Positions 20,913-33,030 of a stretch of 64,000 nt of DNA are shown piece by piece. The translations under genes were made by a program, and so were the position numbers. The stretch comes from Alphaproteobacteria bacterium (GTDB taxonomy: Bacteria; Pseudomonadota; Alphaproteobacteria; Rs-D84): the NCBI GenBank assembly GCA_031555055.1, contig JAVBUT010000006.1, positions 3,886-67,885 of the forward strand, read 5' to 3'. Each line of letters begins with the position of its first letter. Positions within the stretch are counted from its first letter, which is position 1. Under the pieces are notes generated by a model. It was not told where the DNA came from and ran no database searches. It saw nothing but the letters and a program-made list of their open reading frames with translations.

Positions 20913-22433
20913 TTAAAACTTTGCGTTAAAGCCGACGCGGATTCCCAACGATTTATAGAAAGAATTCACTTCGCCGGATGTGCTGCATACCCATCCCGGA
21001 CATTCCGTCTCTATATTTTTGATATTGATTGCGGTTTGGTTTCCGGTATCCGGGTCCAGCATGTCGGCTTCGGTGAATCCATTGTCCAGCCATTCTTCCA
21101 GGATTGTGTCGTACACACCCATATAGAAGCCTTCGTTCAGATACGTTTTCGCGTCCGCATCGCTGACGCTGTAGTAATTGTATGTCATGCCCACCGTCAG
21201 CATTATGCTGTTCGTTATCGCGGTTGACCAATTTCCGGACAAACCAAAGTTTATTGCGGAACCGATACCTGCGGAATCTTCGATGCTTTTCGGGTGTTGC
21301 CAATCAAAGCGGTACGGCTGATCACCGATTGCCTCGTATCCGGGCAACCCCAGTTCAACGCGTGCACCCACGGAATTGTTCTGGTTAATATCATAAACCA
21401 TATCCAATGCCAAATAAGGACCAGACCACGTCACTTCATACGAATGGCTGGTACCGGGCTGTTGAAAATAATAAGTATCGCCGGTGTCAATGCTTTCGGC
21501 GTCATTGCCGACCGTCATTTCATCAGTTATGGAATCACGCCAAATTATCTGCTGAACCGTTGTACCGTTTGGCCCAGGATAGTTTACAATGATAGCCGGA
21601 TCGCATTGCATTTCATCGCTGTCGGGAACGCTGAAACACGCGGACGTCGCAAACGACAACCCGTAATTCTTATCCGTCTTTAATTTATAATTAAAGTGCC
21701 GGTAACCGATCGACGGTGTGATTCTGGTATTGCCCAGCTTGAAAAAATCCGTCAATCCAAATCCGACGTTAAAGCCGAACATGCTGCCGCCGCCGGTTGT
21801 CCCAACAGACAGCGCCTGGCCGAATTCGTTTCCGATCACGGTGTCGGTGGCTTCATCGATCCATTGCGTTATAAAGTATCCGCCGTTGGTTATGTCATCA
21901 TCGACCATGTATGATTCCGCGCCTTGGAATCCGAATTTCACCCCGGCGTCCACCTGCATTTTGGTATTTCCACCGAACACGTAGCCTGCGCCGATGTCAA
22001 AGACATTCCAAGCGATATTGTCATAGTGCAATATGCTGCCGGATTGGTTCATATCGAATTGCCATTGGGCGGTTTCATACGAATAACCACCGTTCAGATA
22101 AAAGCCCGACTGGGTTCCGGAATTCGGCTGTTTCTGCTGACCTTGCTGTTGCTGGCCACGCTGTTGGGGCTGACCCTGCTGCTGTTGCTGGTACGGCGAA
22201 TATCTTGAATAGTCAGAATCCGTATAGTTTCCGGCACGCGGCTGGGCTGTTGCGGGCTGGGCGTATCTTTGTGGCGTGTATCCGGTTTGAGAATATCCGG
22301 TCCGAACGTATCCTGGCTGGGCATAGGTATTCTGCGGCGACTGGTACCCACCGGTATAATAAGTTCCGGCCGCGTCGGCATAACCAATTCCGCCCAGTGC
22401 GCACAATACAGCAAACAAAGATATTTTCTTCAT
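20913..22433 (-). CDS. outer-membrane beta-barrel protein with Tyr/Gln/Pro-rich N-terminal low-complexity region
   Basis: Signal peptide. QQQQQGQPQQRGQQQQGQQKQ tract. C-terminal beta strands ending GIRVGFNAKF (terminal Phe). Confidence 0.7.
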   Translation of the reverse strand: MKKISLFAVLCALGGIGYADAAGTYYTGGYQSPQNTYAQPGYVRTGYSQTGYTPQRYAQPATAQPRAGNYTDSDYSRYSPYQQQQQGQPQQRGQQQQGQQKQPNSGTQSGFYLNGGYSYETAQWQFDMNQSGSILHYDNIAWNVFDIGAGYVFGGNTKMQVDAGVKFGFQGAESYMVDDDITNGGYFITQWIDEATDTVIGNEFGQALSVGTTGGGSMFGFNVGFGLTDFFKLGNTRITPSIGYRHFNYKLKTDKNYGLSFATSACFSVPDSDEMQCDPAIIVNYPGPNGTTVQQIIWRDSITDEMTVGNDAESIDTGDTYYFQQPGTSHSYEVTWSGPYLALDMVYDINQNNSVGARVELGLPGYEAIGDQPYRFDWQHPKSIEDSAGIGSAINFGLSGNWSTAITNSIMLTVGMTYNYYSVSDADAKTYLNEGFYMGVYDTILEEWLDNGFTEADMLDPDTGNQTAINIKNIETECPGWVCSTSGEVNSFYKSLGIRVGFNAKF

Positions 22434-22558
22434 ATTAAAATCCTACATTCTATCCGTCTTATTTTAACATAAAATCGATTTAAAAAAAAGCTCTTAAGTA
22501 CTGGACACTATTCACTATTCGCTATACACTATTCGCTGGTACGGGGTTATGGCGGAAT

Positions 22559-22892
22559 CGCCAATTTTCACCGAAGCGAAGCAAGGGCTGAAAATTGAGC
22601 GTCACGGCGTAGCGCAGCGAAGACGGATGGTAGACACATTTTTATTGCGAGTATGGCGGAATTGGTAGACGCGCTGCCTTGAGGTGGCAGTGGAGCAATC
22701 CATAGGAGTTCGAGTCTCCTTACTCGCACCATATTTATTCATACATCTATGTTATCGGGATTTTATCCATCGCCGTCATACCGGCGAACGCCGGTAACCA
22801 GCAGTATGAAATTTAGTTTTAATAATACTGGACCCCGGCCTACGCCGGGGCGCTCAATTTTCAGCCCTCGCTACGCTCGGTGAAAATTGGCG
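22559..22892. mobile_element. insert bounded by inverted 42/43-nt hairpin repeats and carrying the intact tRNA-Leu
   Basis: CGCCAATTTTCACCGAAGCGAAGCAAGGGCTGAAAATTGAGCG (22559-22601) matches the reverse complement of 22851-22892 with 1 indel and 2 mismatches. Each arm is itself a CAATTTTCA/TGAAAATTG hairpin. Confidence 0.5.
22647..22731 (+). tRNA. tRNA-Leu (anticodon GAG), class II with long variable arm, encoded CCA
   Basis: Hand fold: GCGAGTA/TACTCGC acceptor, GCG-GAATTGGTAGA-CGC D arm, CTGCC-TTGAGGT-GGCAG anticodon arm, AGGAG-TTCGAGT-CTCCT T arm, then A-CCA. Confidence 0.93.
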
Positions 22893-23008
22893 ACTGGTAG
22901 ACGCGCAGGCTTGAGGTGCTTGTGAAGAAATTCGTATGGGTCCGAGTCCCATTAACCCCACCAGGCTTCGCCCGACCATTGACTATTGACTAATATCTAA
23001 CTTTCCCC

Positions 23009-23038
23009 TTGCCCCGAAATTCCGAAATTTGCTAACAT
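23009..23038 (+). promoter_or_regulatory. putative promoter (TTGCCC-N18-TAACAT) shared with the paralog at 43423-43452
   Basis: The block TTTCCCCTTGCCCCG..A.TT....AATTTTGCTAACAT...CC.AAGGA-ATGAGAAA is conserved upstream of both genes. Confidence 0.5.
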
Positions 23039-23050
23039 AAGCCCTAAGGA

Positions 23051-26000
23051 ATGAGAAAACTTAAGGCTCTTTTATTTGTATGCCTTGTCCCGCTTGCTTT
23101 GCACGCGGCTGTTGCCGATGATGCACTGGACGCGGCGCGCGCCGCAAAACGCGGCGTTACGAACACAATCGCCACCAGCGCAACCACAGGTCGCGGACAA
23201 TCTGGAAATTCAGATATTCTGACATCGCCGACGGCGACCCGTGTGCCCGCCGGATCACCACAAAAAACCGATACCCCCCAGGCCCGCGTAATCGCACCAC
23301 GCGACAATGCCGTCACTGCCGAACAATCCAGGTCCGCCACGACCCAAGCCGTCGCGCCACGCACACCCGGCAATGTCCAGCAACGCGCCGCAACCACCAC
23401 ACAAAAAGTTATCGACCAATCCAGAACCGCTGTCGCGCGGACCACGGCTGGCGCACCCGCCACCACCGCGCGCACTGCGACGACGGCCCCGAATGCATCG
23501 CGCGCGGCCGCAACCAATGCCGGGCGCAGTGCAACCGCACCGGTCGGACGCGCGCGCAACGCAACGTCATCGCATGTCGCACGCAGTGCGCTGGACGCCG
23601 AAGCGATCGCAAAAGTCGGTCAAAAAGATTTCAAAAAATGCCGTGAAGTTTATTACCAGTGCATGGACGAATTCTGTGCGAACAAAGACACCCAGTTAAA
23701 GCGCTGTGCCTGTTCTGCCAAGGTTCATAATTTCGACGGAATTAAACAACAAATGTCCCAGGTCGAAGACAAAATGCTGGACTTTAACGAGCGCCTGCTG
23801 ACCGTCAGTATGGAAAAAGAAGACGCCACGGCAATATCGATTGCTACAACCGGCGAACTGGCGTTCCAGACAGATGACAAATCCACGTCGAAAAAAATCC
23901 TGGATGAAATAACTAAAAAACTTAAATCCGAAACCGCAGAAACCGACATGTCGCGCAATCTGTCGGCGATATCGCTGTCTTTGGATACGGATTCTGCATT
24001 CGACACAATTGATTCCATGCTGGGGGCCGGCACGACGGTCAAGGAAGGAACCGCGCTGTACGCGGCCGCCCTGCCCGTTTGTCGCGAAATGGCGGCCGAG
24101 GTATGCGACGCGGACGCCTTGGCAATCGCGCAAAGCGGATACCAGATGGCGATTGAACAGGACTGCAACACGGTTTCAAAAACATACGAAACCATGCGCA
24201 ACACCGCCTTGGAAAAGGTCCGCGAAGGCAGTGCGCTGTTGGAAATGTCACGACTGGACATTCACCAGAAACGCAATTCCGACGACATCCTGACGTGCAA
24301 GAAAAAGATGCTGGACATGATGTCCGACGTGTCCGTTTGCGGCACAGACCTGGGCAAGTGTCTGGACACGACCGGCAAATATATCGATCCTTCGACGGGC
24401 GAAGCATTCCTGACCGTCAACCTGGCGGATTTGGACAAACTGATCACACGCCCCGCCAGCGACCAGAAATGGATATCCGTACCGGGCAACGAAAAATTCG
24501 TCACATTTATGAATTCGAAAAAGAAATATCTGGAACCGGCGATGGAAAATTGCCAAGACATATCGGACCAGGTATGGACAATGTTTTTGGAAGACGCGCT
24601 GGCCCAGATTAAAATCGCCCAGTCGCGTAAACTGGAAGATATGCGCCAAAGCTGTACCAGTCTGACCACCCAGTGCCTGTCCGACACGGCGAAATCCATA
24701 TCTGAATTCGATGCGCGCGCGCTGTCTATTTTCGGGGTAAGCGCGGACAAAACCGTGAACGAAATGTGCACCAGTGTAAAGTCCGCCTGCACCGCGCTGT
24801 TACAAACCACCAGCACCGAGGCAGACTGGGTCGGCGGCATGTCCGAAATCCAAACCGACAAAACATACGACACAATCGTCCAGACTTGCCGCGAAGTCGG
24901 CAAGGCGTGTATCATCCAGACATGCAAATCGGTATCCGGTAACTTTGGCCTGTGCGAAAGCATTGACAAGTCCGTCAACAGAAAATCCATCATCAACCGC
25001 ACGTCATGCTGGAACGAAGTGGTCCAGTGTGTCCAGTCCGCTGGCGCCACATCCATCGCCAGTGTCATGAAACGACACGCCAAGGCCGCAGACGCATCCG
25101 GCGGCGGAAACTTTTATGTCGAAAACTATGGCAAATTACCGGTCCGCGTCCAAGACCCGTTGCCTGTTCAGTGTAATCCAAAGACCGTAACAAATTCCGA
25201 CGGCACCACGACGCCCGGCCAGAATTGCGTTTACGACATCTGCGCTGATTGCGGACAACCGTACAAGCCTACATGCGAAGTATGCCGTCTGGCCGAAAGC
25301 ATTTGGGGCAACTGCGAATTCAAACCGACCGAACAATTAAGCGCCGGCGGATATAACAGGATTAAAAAGACTGTCAAAGATCGTGAAACGTTGTTGTCAT
25401 GGTTTGACACGAACACCGGCACCACCACCAACACCGACAGTTGTCGCGACACATCGTGTCCCGCAGGCAGCTTCCTTAACGCGCCCGGCGGCTATTGCGT
25501 CCCCAGTGACCAGATGTCTTCGGACCTGCTTGAATGCGTACAGGAAAAACAGTTCGACGTATCGACAACATTGACGCCCAGCTTTACAAACTGCTGTACA
25601 TCTGGGATATATGACGTTTATGGAAATTGCTGTATCGGTGGCAACGTTACGATTCCCGGAATGTTCCAGAATAACGCGACCAGCTATTACATCACCCCAA
25701 GCACCATCACCCCCCCGGCCAGTTCTTTGGATGTGTGCACGCAATCTTCTGGCACCGATGCGAAATTGACGGCTGGATTCCGTCTGATGTCGGATCAGAC
25801 ATACATACGTGCCGGCATGAATTTCCTGGTCTGTGTTGGTGGCACACTGCGCGGAACCAATCCGACGACCGCGTTCCCGTCCGGACAGACCGTCGAATGC
25901 GATGGTGGCAAGTTTATGATGATAAACAATAATGACGGAACATATGCAACACCGCATTACGCGACCAAGGTTGACGGGACACCCGACCCGACCCAGTATC

Positions 26001-26194
26001 CGACTTCCCCGGCCAATTATTATAACCTGAATTCCCAGGATACGCCGCAGACGGCATGCATATTGAATCTTTCGTCCAAGATATGGGCGACCAAGGGTGG
26101 CAACCCGAACACCAGCAATCCCGCTTGCATTAAAACCGGGGTCGCTCCTGATTTCTACCCAACGGCATTTAATAAAAAGTTCATCGGATATTAA
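23051..26194 (+). CDS. giant cysteine-rich secreted protein, family member P1 (1047 aa)
   Basis: Signal peptide MRKLKALLFVCLVPLALHA. Arg/Ala/Thr-rich low-complexity spacer. CREVYYQCMDEFCANKDTQLKRCACS signature. Long region with paired Cys. Cys-rich C-terminal third. Confidence 0.85.
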   Translation: MRKLKALLFVCLVPLALHAAVADDALDAARAAKRGVTNTIATSATTGRGQSGNSDILTSPTATRVPAGSPQKTDTPQARVIAPRDNAVTAEQSRSATTQAVAPRTPGNVQQRAATTTQKVIDQSRTAVARTTAGAPATTARTATTAPNASRAAATNAGRSATAPVGRARNATSSHVARSALDAEAIAKVGQKDFKKCREVYYQCMDEFCANKDTQLKRCACSAKVHNFDGIKQQMSQVEDKMLDFNERLLTVSMEKEDATAISIATTGELAFQTDDKSTSKKILDEITKKLKSETAETDMSRNLSAISLSLDTDSAFDTIDSMLGAGTTVKEGTALYAAALPVCREMAAEVCDADALAIAQSGYQMAIEQDCNTVSKTYETMRNTALEKVREGSALLEMSRLDIHQKRNSDDILTCKKKMLDMMSDVSVCGTDLGKCLDTTGKYIDPSTGEAFLTVNLADLDKLITRPASDQKWISVPGNEKFVTFMNSKKKYLEPAMENCQDISDQVWTMFLEDALAQIKIAQSRKLEDMRQSCTSLTTQCLSDTAKSISEFDARALSIFGVSADKTVNEMCTSVKSACTALLQTTSTEADWVGGMSEIQTDKTYDTIVQTCREVGKACIIQTCKSVSGNFGLCESIDKSVNRKSIINRTSCWNEVVQCVQSAGATSIASVMKRHAKAADASGGGNFYVENYGKLPVRVQDPLPVQCNPKTVTNSDGTTTPGQNCVYDICADCGQPYKPTCEVCRLAESIWGNCEFKPTEQLSAGGYNRIKKTVKDRETLLSWFDTNTGTTTNTDSCRDTSCPAGSFLNAPGGYCVPSDQMSSDLLECVQEKQFDVSTTLTPSFTNCCTSGIYDVYGNCCIGGNVTIPGMFQNNATSYYITPSTITPPASSLDVCTQSSGTDAKLTAGFRLMSDQTYIRAGMNFLVCVGGTLRGTNPTTAFPSGQTVECDGGKFMMINNNDGTYATPHYATKVDGTPDPTQYPTSPANYYNLNSQDTPQTACILNLSSKIWATKGGNPNTSNPACIKTGVAPDFYPTAFNKKFIGY

Positions 26195-31738: not shown

Positions 31739-32980
31739 TTACAACATCTGGCGCGCCACCGGCAGAGTGATTCCGTGCTGTTCGCACGCACGTTCCAAAA
31801 ACTTTTTCAGCACATCCAGCGTCAGCGGTAATTTATGCAGCCTGTTTAAATACGGCGCGGCGCATTCGTCGCAAACGGCGCGTCCGGTCTTTGGCGACAG
31901 ATAATTCAAGCTATCTTTCTTGCCGCACCCGGAACAGCGCGACATATCCAAAGCATATCCCAAATCCGCCAGAAAATTTATTTCCCACGAAAGATACAGA
32001 TTTTTTTTATCATCCTGACTCTGTCGCGTCTCCCCCTGCTTGCGGGGGGAGTGGTCGCAAAGCGACCGAGGGGGGTGATTATCAATAACTTCTTTGGGAT
32101 AAAAATTCTGCAATGGTGGGATTTCATTTTCATGCGTTAAATAATAGTAAATATTATCCAGAACATTTTGCAAGTCCCTGATCACAGCGTCATTCCAAAA
32201 ACGAATTGTGCGATATCCGGAATCCTGCAAGAATTTATCGCGCACAGCATCGTGATAAATTTGTTGTTGTTCTCCATGATGTTCACCATCTAATTCAACG
32301 ATTAATTTTGTTTTTCTGTTTACAAAATCCGCAATATAGTTTCCGATCGGCATCTGTTTTACAAAATCAAACCCGCCGTTTGATCCGCTTAAATTTTTCC
32401 ACAGAATCGCTTCGTGTTTTGTTAGGTTTTTCCGTAATGATTTTGCAAAGACTTGTGCCTGGGGCGCACAACGGTTCACCCCCCTCGCCCACTCTGTGGG
32501 CGCTCCCCCCGCAAGCGGGGTGAGACGTGCTTTTGGTCCAAGCATATCAAACACTCCGTCGCATCTCCCCCCGCTTGCGGGGGGAGTGGTCGCAAAGCGA
32601 CCGAGGGGGGTGACAGCCAAACTGTGCAGTAAATTTTTCGTGCGTATAAACAGTGTCTCGTACTTTTCGCGTTCCGGCAATAATGCCGCGATCAGTGCGA
32701 ACATCGAATTCATTATCCCCAGCGTCCGCGGGTCAGACATCAGCGGCGCAGCCATGTTTTTTTCCGCTTCCCAGTGAAACGCCCCCAGTTGCGAATCCAG
32801 TCGCGCGTTCCATGACACGCCACCCACCTGGCCCACCAGCGGTTTGTTTTTCCGGGCAACTTGGGCACCCGTCAGCATGCCGGTCATGACGCCATAATCA
32901 TGTGTAAAAATCACGCCGATCGAATCGCGTTCGCCGAACGGCCGCAAAGCAATCAAAATTCCCGTCGATTCCAGTTTCAT
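31739..32980 (-). CDS. recO: DNA repair protein RecO carrying a 199-codon in-frame insertion
   Basis: N-terminal OB fold MKLESTGILIALRPFGERD. C-terminal Zn finger MSRCSGCG...YLSPKTGRAVCDEC. The two halves are separated by 32018-32614 (see the mobile_element feature). Confidence 0.8.
   Translation of the reverse strand: MKLESTGILIALRPFGERDSIGVIFTHDYGVMTGMLTGAQVARKNKPLVGQVGGVSWNARLDSQLGAFHWEAEKNMAAPLMSDPRTLGIMNSMFALIAALLPEREKYETLFIRTKNLLHSLAVTPLGRFATTPPASGGRCDGVFDMLGPKARLTPLAGGAPTEWARGVNRCAPQAQVFAKSLRKNLTKHEAILWKNLSGSNGGFDFVKQMPIGNYIADFVNRKTKLIVELDGEHHGEQQQIYHDAVRDKFLQDSGYRTIRFWNDAVIRDLQNVLDNIYYYLTHENEIPPLQNFYPKEVIDNHPPRSLCDHSPRKQGETRQSQDDKKNLYLSWEINFLADLGYALDMSRCSGCGKKDSLNYLSPKTGRAVCDECAAPYLNRLHKLPLTLDVLKKFLERACEQHGITLPVARQML
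32018..32614 (-). mobile_element. DUF559 (Vsr-like endonuclease fold) module flanked by GC-rich palindromic elements, translated in frame inside recO
   Basis: Core LRKNLTKHEAILWKNL...GNYIADFVNRKTKLIVELDGEHHGEQQQIYHDAVRDKFLQDSGYRTIRFWNDAV is the DUF559 pattern. It is bounded by copies of TCxCCCCGCTTGCGGGGGGAG-hairpin-GAGGGGGGTGA at 32019-32082, 32476-32527 (inverted) and 32556-32614. Length 597 bp, or 199 codons. Confidence 0.65.
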
Positions 32981-33001
32981 AGGATAAAGTATACAGCAAA
33001 T

Positions 33002-33030
33002 AAAAAAATCCCGCAACGCGGGATTTTTTT
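33002..33030. terminator. AAAAAAATCCCGCAACGCGGGATTTTTTT hairpin, copy 1 (3' of the orphan gene, upstream of recO)
   Basis: The 29-bp core is identical to 34061-34090. Confidence 0.7.

Follow-up and report, generated by a model that had tools for sequence, protein, structure and literature searches.

A tRNA-Leu(GAG) gene split in its D-loop by an insert that carries its own tRNA-Leu(GAG) between inverted hairpin modules

Several described systems approach one or another aspect of the locus reported here. Mobile insertion cassettes (MICs), such as the IS231-MIC231 elements of Bacillus cereus, are transposase-less, are flanked by terminal inverted repeats and carry passenger genes. REPINs are said, in work by Bertels and Rainey from 2011, to be inverted doublets of repetitive extragenic palindromes (REPs) that are mobilised by RAYT transposases. 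Rickettsia palindromic elements (RPEs) are short hairpin repeats without cargo that are tolerated in frame in proteins, and the split or intron-containing tRNA genes of archaea (Nanoarchaeum, Thermoproteales) involve bulge-helix-bulge motifs and a splicing endonuclease, the D-loop being among the non-canonical intron positions. Here we analyse a stretch of 64,000 nucleotides (contig JAVBUT010000006.1 of assembly GCA_031555055.1, labelled Alphaproteobacteria, Rs-D84; hereafter the window), in which a tRNA-Leu(GAG) gene is split in its D-loop by an insert that ends in inverted hairpin modules and holds an intact tRNA-Leu(GAG) of its own (Table 1). We hold with high confidence that the outer gene was disrupted and replaced by the tRNA-Leu(GAG) of the insert. 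The best explanation of the whole, which we consider rather probable, is that the D-loop was split when a slice of DNA delimited by two modules arrived in a single event, the inner tRNA then taking over. A literature search for a bacterial palindromic element, or one of the miniature inverted-repeat transposable element (MITE) type, that carries a tRNA, lies in a tRNA D-loop or follows tRNA genes yielded no relevant report, which is weak evidence of absence.

In the native window ARAGORN calls a single tRNA, the inner tRNA-Leu(GAG), which is also the sole match to the Rfam tRNA model in 21500-24000, even at E<=10. We compared the possible splice boundaries of the outer gene with 91 in-silico deletion constructs. 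Joining 22543-22558 to 22893-22963, as first proposed in a preliminary description of this DNA, does yield a tRNA-Leu(GAG) in ARAGORN, but one of 87 nt, with a D-loop 2 nt above the family norm. Deleting 22558-22893 instead gives a tRNA-Leu(GAG) of 85 nt with its anticodon at position 35; length and anticodon position are those of the inner gene and of eight of nine orthologs, the ninth being 86 nt long. The insert is thus best delimited one base further out on either side than first described, and the break falls between positions 15 and 16 of the outer gene. The essence of the preliminary description thus stands: only the inner gene, a canonical tRNA-Leu(GAG) by both ARAGORN and Rfam, is found natively, and deletion of the insert restores the outer one.

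The restored outer gene is nearly intact. Its acceptor stem pairs at seven of seven positions (GGGGTTA/TAACCCC) and its T-stem at five of five (ATGGG/CCCAT), the anticodon stem is paired, a variable arm is present, and the restored D-loop, AACTGG, also occurs in relatives L034, L042, L045, L050 and L053. The first 12 nt of the 5' piece recur unchanged as the beginning of the L039 ortholog and in a fragment in L049, and the 3' piece is 75% identical to the inner gene over 69 nt. The only visible defect, as already pointed out in the preliminary description, is a C at position 55 in the T-loop (TCCGAGT), where all nine relatives have T. The persistence of all outer stems alongside the loss of U55 alone, a single change only, suggests that the disruption is young relative to the divergence of the lineages.

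A misassembly is unlikely. L001, a Logan assembly made independently from run SRR23967709, agrees with the window at every one of the 598 locus bases that it covers (22434-23031). A chimeric join of the tRNA-Leu loci of two species at a shared tRNA sequence could be imagined because several Rs-D84 species co-occur in one run (L049 also comes from SRR23967709) and because the Logan contigs of relatives break at this tRNA-Leu. We give this artefact hardly any credence: two assemblies agree base for base across those 598 bases; exact repeats shared by the inner and outer genes reach 12 nt at most and the perfect inverted repeat measures 17 nt, both shorter than usual k-mer sizes; the outer pieces pair fully with each other in the acceptor stem (7/7); and synteny is correct on both sides.

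The locus is flanked by the gene of a Pom-family outer-membrane protein (20913-22433, minus strand; PF17251) and that of a Cys-rich protein of 1047 aa (23051-26194; no Pfam match). An exact-protein look-up of the Pom gene of the window returned one other contig only, from the same run, and Pom homologs are at most 61% identical, so that this species has no close database relative. We looked up 11 Pom homologs, all with the same neighbourhood, and nine lineages gave a complete intergenic region. In all nine, a single uninterrupted tRNA-Leu stands beside the Pom gene on the opposite strand, in seven of them between the Pom gene and the Cys-rich gene. Their intergenic regions mostly measure about 185-325 bp, against 617 bp in the window. 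Upstream of the tRNA-Leu of the relatives lies a conserved stretch that resembles a promoter (TTGAAAAAAAAA... and, some 17 nt on, TACTAT or TAAGAT); in the window, the outer 5' piece sits at the corresponding distance from the promoter region. Since the nine relatives have an uninterrupted tRNA-Leu and the outer piece is in the matching position, the extra 336 bp is a lineage-specific insertion into the resident gene. At the orthologous locus none of the nine has two tRNA genes or a module within a tRNA gene. Uninterrupted alleles, which the preliminary description had proposed to look for, are thus present in relatives, and the independent degenerate tandem duplicates that it had named as the contrary case are not seen among the nine.

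The orthologous tRNA-Leu genes at L039:3818-3902, L042:3802-3886 and L053:2571-2655 have the anticodon AAG, not GAG. In bacteria an A34 is unusual in tRNAs other than tRNA-Arg; here it would mean inosine or a changed way of decoding.

Identities between the tRNA genes were read ungapped over 85 nt, leaving out L050 (86 nt). The restored outer gene is closest to the ortholog in L045 (70/85), with which it shares the whole anticodon arm and the AACTGG D-loop. The inner gene has its closest matches in L036 (79/85), L047 (76/85, with an identical 32-nt variable arm and T arm) and L034 (74/85). These matches mark the outer gene as the one inherited vertically at this locus and place the inner one in a different tRNA-Leu(GAG) lineage within this bacterial group, which suggests an origin of the inner gene in another locus or organism. 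A recent tandem duplication of the resident gene is ruled out by the same comparison, inner and outer genes being identical at 64 of 85 positions and differing in their lineage affinities.

The ends of the insert (22558-22574 and 22877-22893) are complementary at 17 of 17 positions, and the inverted repeat continues for 38 nt at 89% (22575-22612 and 22840-22877), giving arms of about 55 nt. Each terminal stretch of about 45 nt folds alone into an imperfect hairpin (DNA folds of -10.5 and -10.3 kcal/mol, equalled by 1 and 4 of 200 shuffles). The inverted hairpin ends of the preliminary description are therefore present, although its figures of 334 bp for the insert and 42/43 nt for the repeats give way to 336 bp, a perfect repeat of 17 bp and longer arms. 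The 336 bp is exactly what must be removed to restore the gene and exactly what the 17-bp repeat bounds, a coincidence of boundaries that supports a single event. A further correction concerns the nature of the hairpins: they had been taken for the ends of the element itself, but are two inverted copies of a lineage-wide module that normally follows tRNA CCA ends.

The two modules belong to different subtypes, with different loops in the first hairpin (H1) and different second hairpins (H2). The right module folds at -20.3 kcal/mol (z=-4.2). A partial forward module at 22781-22824 aligns locally with the right module (z=4.9, matched by none of 200 shuffles) and faces its tail, so that the two form an inner palindrome. 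The tail of the left module resembles that of a module in L011; the inner tRNA starts 18 nt past the GACGGAT of the left module, and in L011 the next tRNA-Leu begins 19 nt after a similar tail. The spacer between the two modules measures 227 nt and holds the tRNA gene. Open reading frames (ORFs) within the insert encode 27-54 aa only and overlap the tRNA and the hairpins; there is no transposase gene inside. From the order of its parts (module, tRNA-Leu, module, inverted module), the insert looks like a slice of a tRNA cluster that was cut at the tRNA-proximal tips of the outermost modules.

Part of this anatomy would also fit a stepwise history. A second tRNA-Leu(GAG) could have been acquired or duplicated beside the resident one and the modules inserted later, one of them into the D-loop of the redundant copy; in a variant, the left module entered between T16 and T17 and a second event added 22636-22894, duplicating TGGTAGAC. 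Indeed TGGTAGAC stands directly after the left module and again at 22895-22902, a join made there likewise yields a tRNA of 85 nt, whose D-loop is the commoner AATTGG, and the two modules differ in subtype. We nevertheless judge such a history improbable. None of the nine relatives has two tRNA genes or an in-gene module at the locus, the TGGTAGAC match is partly the tail of the module itself (compare GGCGGACGGAAAGCAC in L011), the second element that it postulates would lack repeats at its ends, the number of events rises, and the perfect outer inverted repeat is left to chance. Taking TGGTAGAC for a relic D-loop or a target duplication was only partly convincing, as the L011 tail is similar at the same distance from the next tRNA.

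Table 1. Features of the interrupted tRNA-Leu locus (window coordinates) and related features in other loci
Feature	Position	Strand	Description
Outer 5' piece	22543..22557	+	positions 1-15: acceptor 5' strand GGGGTTA, U8 G9, D-stem 5' strand, first D-loop bases
Insert, 336 bp	22558..22893	+	bounded by perfect 17-bp inverted repeat TCGCCAATTTTCACCGA; not present at this locus in the 9 related lineages
Left module	22558..22640	+	H1 22558-22601, degenerate H2, tail including TGGTAGAC 22628-22635; model R1 80.8 bits at 22558-22613
Inner intact tRNA-Leu(GAG), 85 nt, CCA encoded	22647..22731	+	ARAGORN; Rfam 54.8 bits
Partial forward module	22781..22824	+	H2-like hairpin CCGGCGAACGCCGG and tail; alignment to right module
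Right module, inverted	22805..22893	-	H1 22849-22893, H2 CCCCGGC GTAG GCCGGGG, tail; model R1 74.2 bits at 22839-22893
Outer 3' piece	22894..22963	+	positions 16-85: rest of D-arm, CAGGC-TTGAGGT-GCTTG, variable arm, C55 T-arm, TAACCCC, A73, CCA
Promoter-like site TGGACA-17-TACACT	22502..22530	+	consensus scan; just upstream of outer 5' piece
tRNA-Leu, anticodon GAG, at orthologous locus	L033, L034/35, L036, L045/46, L047/48, L050		
tRNA-Leu, anticodon AAG, at orthologous locus	L039-41, L042-44, L053		
Module examples	L005:6497-6552, L011:2164-2262, L014:3414-3530		among L002-L032

The module was characterized by an exact-pattern scan of one genome per GTDB species (CAATTTTCACC, 8-18 nt, GCTGAAAATTG). 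The scan gave 31 loci, two of which are chance matches (a Photorhabdus contig and a Proteobacteria metagenome-assembled genome (MAG), L019). The other 29 are related copies in MAGs whose labels read Alphaproteobacteria, Rickettsiales, Ca. Enterousia or (uncultured) proteobacterium and which come from the guts of termites, ruminants and humans. Of these 29 hairpins, about 20 directly follow either the CCA end of an intact tRNA gene (Gly-CCC, Ala-GGC, Ala-CGC, Ala-TGC, Leu-TAA or Gln-CTG) or a tRNA 3' fragment; the remaining copies lie after ORFs or in other intergenic DNA. The consensus of H1 is CAC-CAATTTTCA-CCG-(loop)-GGG-C-TGAAAATTG-A-GTG. Its first CA is the terminal CA of the tRNA, so that the stem takes in the last two bases of the latter. 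H2, which follows, is GC-rich (GTCNCGCC-GTAGC...GAA-GGCGGAC), with a loop of about 10 to 50 nt.

A covariance model built from 28 copies finds 37 in the loci examined. Forward copies score about 80 bits against about 20 in reverse, and the orientation of the module is thus well defined. Pairing is standard at 98.9%, and both sides have changed at four pairs, the exact-pattern sample limiting the covariation that can be seen; the compensatory changes are CAC/GTG to CGC/GCG, CAATTTTC/GAAAATTG to CGATTTTC/GAAAATCG, and the tip GC-GAA-GC to GGC-GWA-GCC. Searches of Rfam at permissive thresholds with the window locus and eight module-bearing loci returned tRNAs only and no family for the module. 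With sensitive filters off, the window holds exactly two modules in its 64 kb, both at the tRNA-Leu locus (forward from 22558, inverted from 22893) and both with the CGC/GCG tip variant, as in L012. Around tRNA genes in other genomes there are one to three copies per 8-kb locus. In L047, diverged forward modules lie 32 nt downstream of the intact tRNA-Leu(GAG), which shows that modules can belong to the tRNA-Leu locus. In at least six different tRNA genes, module and CCA meet with base precision, so the module must at some time have spread in a site-precise way. Its role could be that of a signal for 3' processing or for termination, of a site of recombination, or of both.

Other arrangements were seen around the module in relatives. 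Downstream of a tRNA-Gly(CCC), L005:6263-6552 (minus strand) has three tandem modules with a period of about 117 nt; the second and third are without the 5' arm of H1, and a T-run follows each. In L021:4266-4546, L022:6163-6457 and L023:3762-4075, an intact tRNA-Gly(CCC) is followed by a terminator-like hairpin, about 150-210 bp of other DNA, and then a displaced 21-nt 3' fragment of tRNA-Gly with a module. As read from its sequence, this layout is the classical footprint of an insertion that replaces a tRNA 3' end, the putative inserted DNA being only about 190-230 bp long. Finally, one contig (JAZSAG010000050.1; L026:6486-8000 and L015:1-2470) has an islet of about 3.8 kb with genes for HipA-like and HipB/XRE-like proteins. 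Direct repeats at least 150 nt long flank it, each made up of a tRNA-Gly 3' end and a whole module; no integrase was seen in this islet.

How did the insert reach the D-loop? In the mechanism that we propose, it would have come in a single event, as part of a tRNA cluster with a module tip at either end. The mover might be a trans-acting enzyme that acts on the tips, in the manner of MITEs, MICs or REPINs, or hairpin-assisted recombination, the enzyme being favoured only slightly. That the insert was mobilised as a unit by an activity directed at the tips is a tentative proposal, to which we give somewhat less than an even chance and which we place slightly ahead of a template switch.

Several observations weigh against such mobilisation. 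Searches of the 64-kb window, of related loci totalling about 0.45 Mb, and of viral contigs, phages and plasmids gave neither a second cassette nor another inverted pair of modules; the search for further copies of a tRNA-carrying insert that the preliminary description had suggested thus gave none in the window or the related loci examined. Nor was any transposase, integrase or RAYT found among the 18 window ORFs scanned with NCBIfam or Pfam, which include five of those nearest on either side, other nearby ORFs being left out. There is no clean target-site duplication; no exact direct repeat stands at the flanks (...GGCGGAA / insert / CTGGTAGAC), where the candidates are a 2-bp AT/AC with a mismatch and an imperfect TGGCGGA/TGGCGA, the latter overlapping the tip. 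Read on the opposite strand, the module tip TCGCCA gives TGGCGA, which resembles the TGGCGGA of the tRNA at the break, a likeness that makes an accident based on microhomology plausible. The difference in subtype indicates that the left and right modules are not recent copies of each other. Moreover, copies are on the same strand in all five other multi-module loci, which makes the inverted pair of the insert unusual, and the tRNA-Ala(GGC) and tRNA-Gly(CCC) sites at which modules stand are orthologous from genus to genus, which fits a selected cis-element better than an active transposon. The original proposal of a non-autonomous element that disrupted the tRNA gene while delivering a copy holds for the D-loop break and the intact copy carried, and falls short on transposability, for which no second copy, transposase or clean duplication was found in the sequences searched.

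Much of this evidence can be accommodated by a one-off illegitimate recombination or replication template switch, with no mobile element at all. A nascent strand would copy a module-bearing tRNA cluster, of the same genome or of foreign Rs-D84 DNA, from tip to inverted tip; pairing of the tips would bring the ends together, and the return switch would use the similarity of TGGCGA and TGGCGGA. The imperfect direct repeat formed by TGGCGGA (22550-22556) and TGGCGA (22888-22893) does flank the insert, the inverted arms can form a stem of about 55 bp, no further cassette copy, transposase or clean target duplication was found, and one relative, L053, shows a palindrome-forming rearrangement at the same locus. 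However, both switch points must fall exactly at module tips to give the perfect 17-bp repeat, a switch across a stem usually deletes rather than inserts, and 2 nt are missing compared with a simple crossover in TTGG/CGGAA. On balance we regard such an accident as unlikely, if still a serious competitor of tip-directed mobilisation.

In L053 (2656-2900, minus strand), a hairpin-repeat array of about 240 bp (CATGGCGAC-loop-GCCGCCATGGCCGC) lies between the promoter and the intact tRNA-Leu(AAG). It contains inverted copies of the first 12 nt of the tRNA, and a long perfect palindrome takes in the tRNA 5' end. This array, together with the contig ends of L051 and L052, indicates that the tRNA-Leu locus is prone to rearrangement in relatives. 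An apparent interruption of the D-arm in L051 and L052, whose contigs end in the tRNA, was set aside: by comparison with L053 it is likely a leader hairpin array upstream of an intact tRNA. In L049:1-42 (minus strand), from the same run as the window and from a different species, GGGGTTATGGCG, which equals the first 12 nt of the outer gene, stands at the normal distance from the promoter and is followed by 30 nt unlike any tRNA (CGTACGAGTGGTAAGCAAGTCGCGTTTAGC) and the contig end; this could be another D-arm interruption or another leader repeat.

Other searches added no further case. A metagenome scan for empty-site alleles with the outer 3' 20-mer GAGTCCCATTAACCCCACCA gave two chance matches, in a coding-like sequence and a tRNA-Ile-like gene, and a protein-database search for similar junctions with the 40-aa ORF that crosses the left junction gave no candidates. 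The hairpin pattern had no match in viral contigs, and blastn of the locus against phages and plasmids matched the tRNA part alone. A classical integrase insertion was rejected on the orientation of the repeats, the position of the break and the absence of an integrase among the neighbours identified. A broader version of tip-directed mobilisation would make the module the end of an undescribed family of mobile DNA directed at tRNA ends, an inverted pair of which moves what lies between; this we find doubtful. Equally doubtful, within such a family, is the corollary that the tRNA-Leu(GAG) cargo let the unit land in an essential single-copy tRNA gene of a reduced genome while sparing the host, in a self-compensating transposition.

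The consequences for the cell depend on expression of the inner gene. A consensus scan of 22380-23100 detects a single promoter-like site, just upstream of the outer 5' piece, and none inside the insert; one site found against 1.2 expected in shuffles is weak alone. Between the ancestral promoter region and the outer 5' piece, at 22508-22535, a 14-nt tandem repeat (CTATTCACTATTCG / CTATACACTATTCG) shifts the conserved -10 region relative to the relatives. In the proposed course of events, a transcript begun at the resident promoter would pass the 5' fragment and the left module and reach the inner gene; the inner tRNA, set free by RNase P and 3' processing, would take over decoding, and the outer gene would be left as an inert pseudogene whose decay has begun with the change of U55 to C. 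The host is probably an Rs-D84-type (Ca. Enterousia-like) gut alphaproteobacterium, likely with a reduced genome. Genomes of Rs-D84 members are generally below 1 Mbp (PMC12306168), which makes it plausible that tRNA-Leu(GAG) is single-copy here and that an uncompensated hit would be costly. With the intact copy in place, the break probably costs the cell little, and the selective neutrality of the insertion can reasonably be inferred, presuming that the inner gene is expressed.

The outer gene might alternatively still function as a split tRNA: the arms would pair, RNase III would remove the duplex and the halves would be held together by the acceptor and D stems, so that the locus would supply two tRNA-Leu(GAG) species. 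The predicted RNA fold does join the outer acceptor stem, a duplex of about 55 bp, the inner cloverleaf and the outer anticodon and T arms (-190 kcal/mol, z=-8), and the outer stems are all still perfectly paired. Yet the inverted repeat makes this fold inevitable, and the fold itself is thus not evidence. The outer gene alone has C55 in place of the near-universal U55, the intact gene inside has the same anticodon, so that the outer one is not needed, and we know of no bacterial pathway that joins or uses such tRNA halves. We consider a functional split tRNA very improbable.

The genes identified around the locus are those of the Pom porin, the Cys-rich protein, Pth, an outer-membrane beta-barrel protein (OMP) and PolA, with SIMPL and DUF3078 genes beyond Pom. 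The Cys-rich, secreted-looking protein of about 1000 aa (also at L033:1645-4752, L034:1748-4771 and L039:639-3749) has no Pfam or NCBIfam match, and its gene is syntenic with the Pom porin and tRNA-Leu in most relatives recovered. Upstream of the syntenic block, L047 (705-5921; termite gut) encodes a reverse transcriptase (RVT_1, 387 aa), a BrnT/BrnA toxin-antitoxin pair and a methyltransferase, and L045 has two resolvase fragments after recO. Elsewhere in the window (31739-33016, minus strand), a RecO homolog of 425 aa contains an endonuclease domain of the DUF559 / MTES_1575 type (residues 188-293) between RecO_N and RecO_C, whereas the RecO of L045 is a plain protein of 217 aa.

The insertion is real, unusual and self-compensating; for the manner of its arrival, a mobile cassette is a tentative candidate and a template switch a less likely one. 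If the cassette is mobile, selfish DNA would have invaded an essential single-copy RNA gene of a streamlined genome by bringing a working copy, for which the sole familiar parallel is integrase elements that restore a tRNA 3' end, and the locus would offer a concrete mechanism for the horizontal replacement of tRNA genes between related lineages. If it arose by a one-off rearrangement, it is a curiosity, a pseudogene nested around its own replacement. Whatever the mechanism, a conserved structured element absent from Rfam stands at the CCA end of many tRNA genes in poorly known gut bacteria. This tRNA-trailing module may be a more useful by-product than the insertion itself, and it is testable with the covariance model.

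Compared with the systems introduced above, the locus shares features with each. Like archaeal split tRNA genes, it has a tRNA in two pieces with complementary flanks that could join the halves; unlike them, it is bacterial, has a further tRNA between the pieces and shows a disabling change in the outer gene. A bacterial group I tRNA intron was rejected as well, the break being in the D-loop rather than the anticodon loop and no Rfam intron family matching even at E<=10. With RPEs it shares short hairpin repeats that occur in reduced alphaproteobacterial genomes and are able to sit inside functional genes, although here the host gene is destroyed and replaced and cargo is carried. REPs and REPINs are likewise imperfect extragenic palindromes at gene 3' ends, with an inverted pair as the apparent unit and no clear target duplication. 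However, REPIN spacers are short and contain no gene, in contrast to the gene-bearing spacer of the insert; REPs are usually species-specific and abundant, whereas the module spans MAGs from termite, ruminant and human guts and appears to be sparse, with two copies in the 64 kb here; its H1 arms are identical in 29 of 29 related copies, that exact sequence having been the search requirement; and the inverted doublet is not its common form, the five other multi-copy loci being direct.

Closer parallels are found in two directions. As in MITEs and MICs, the insert is small, has no transposase, ends in terminal inverted repeats, carries a passenger gene and sits in a gene. It departs from them in having no clear target-site duplication, no second copy in the DNA searched and no parent insertion sequence (IS) with the same ends among the window ORFs scanned, and in that its ends are copies of a conserved tRNA-trailing module and its passenger tRNA has the same identity as the gene hit. 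Like islands and prophages whose integrases target tRNA genes, it hits a tRNA gene and brings sequence that keeps the tRNA working, and the integrase pattern itself, a duplicated tRNA-Gly 3' fragment, is seen beside the same module in relatives (L021-L023, L015/L026). Yet integrase elements cross over in the 3' half of the gene, restore a chimeric tRNA and leave direct repeats, whereas the insert breaks the D-loop, has inverted-repeat flanks and brings a whole separate tRNA that has its own acceptor stem (GCGAGTA/TACTCGC), with no integrase among the neighbours identified. By analogy, then, the nearest match to the way in which the insert appears to work is a passenger-bearing MITE or mobile insertion cassette, while the effect of the insert on the host resembles that of integrase elements that repair the tRNA gene they interrupt.

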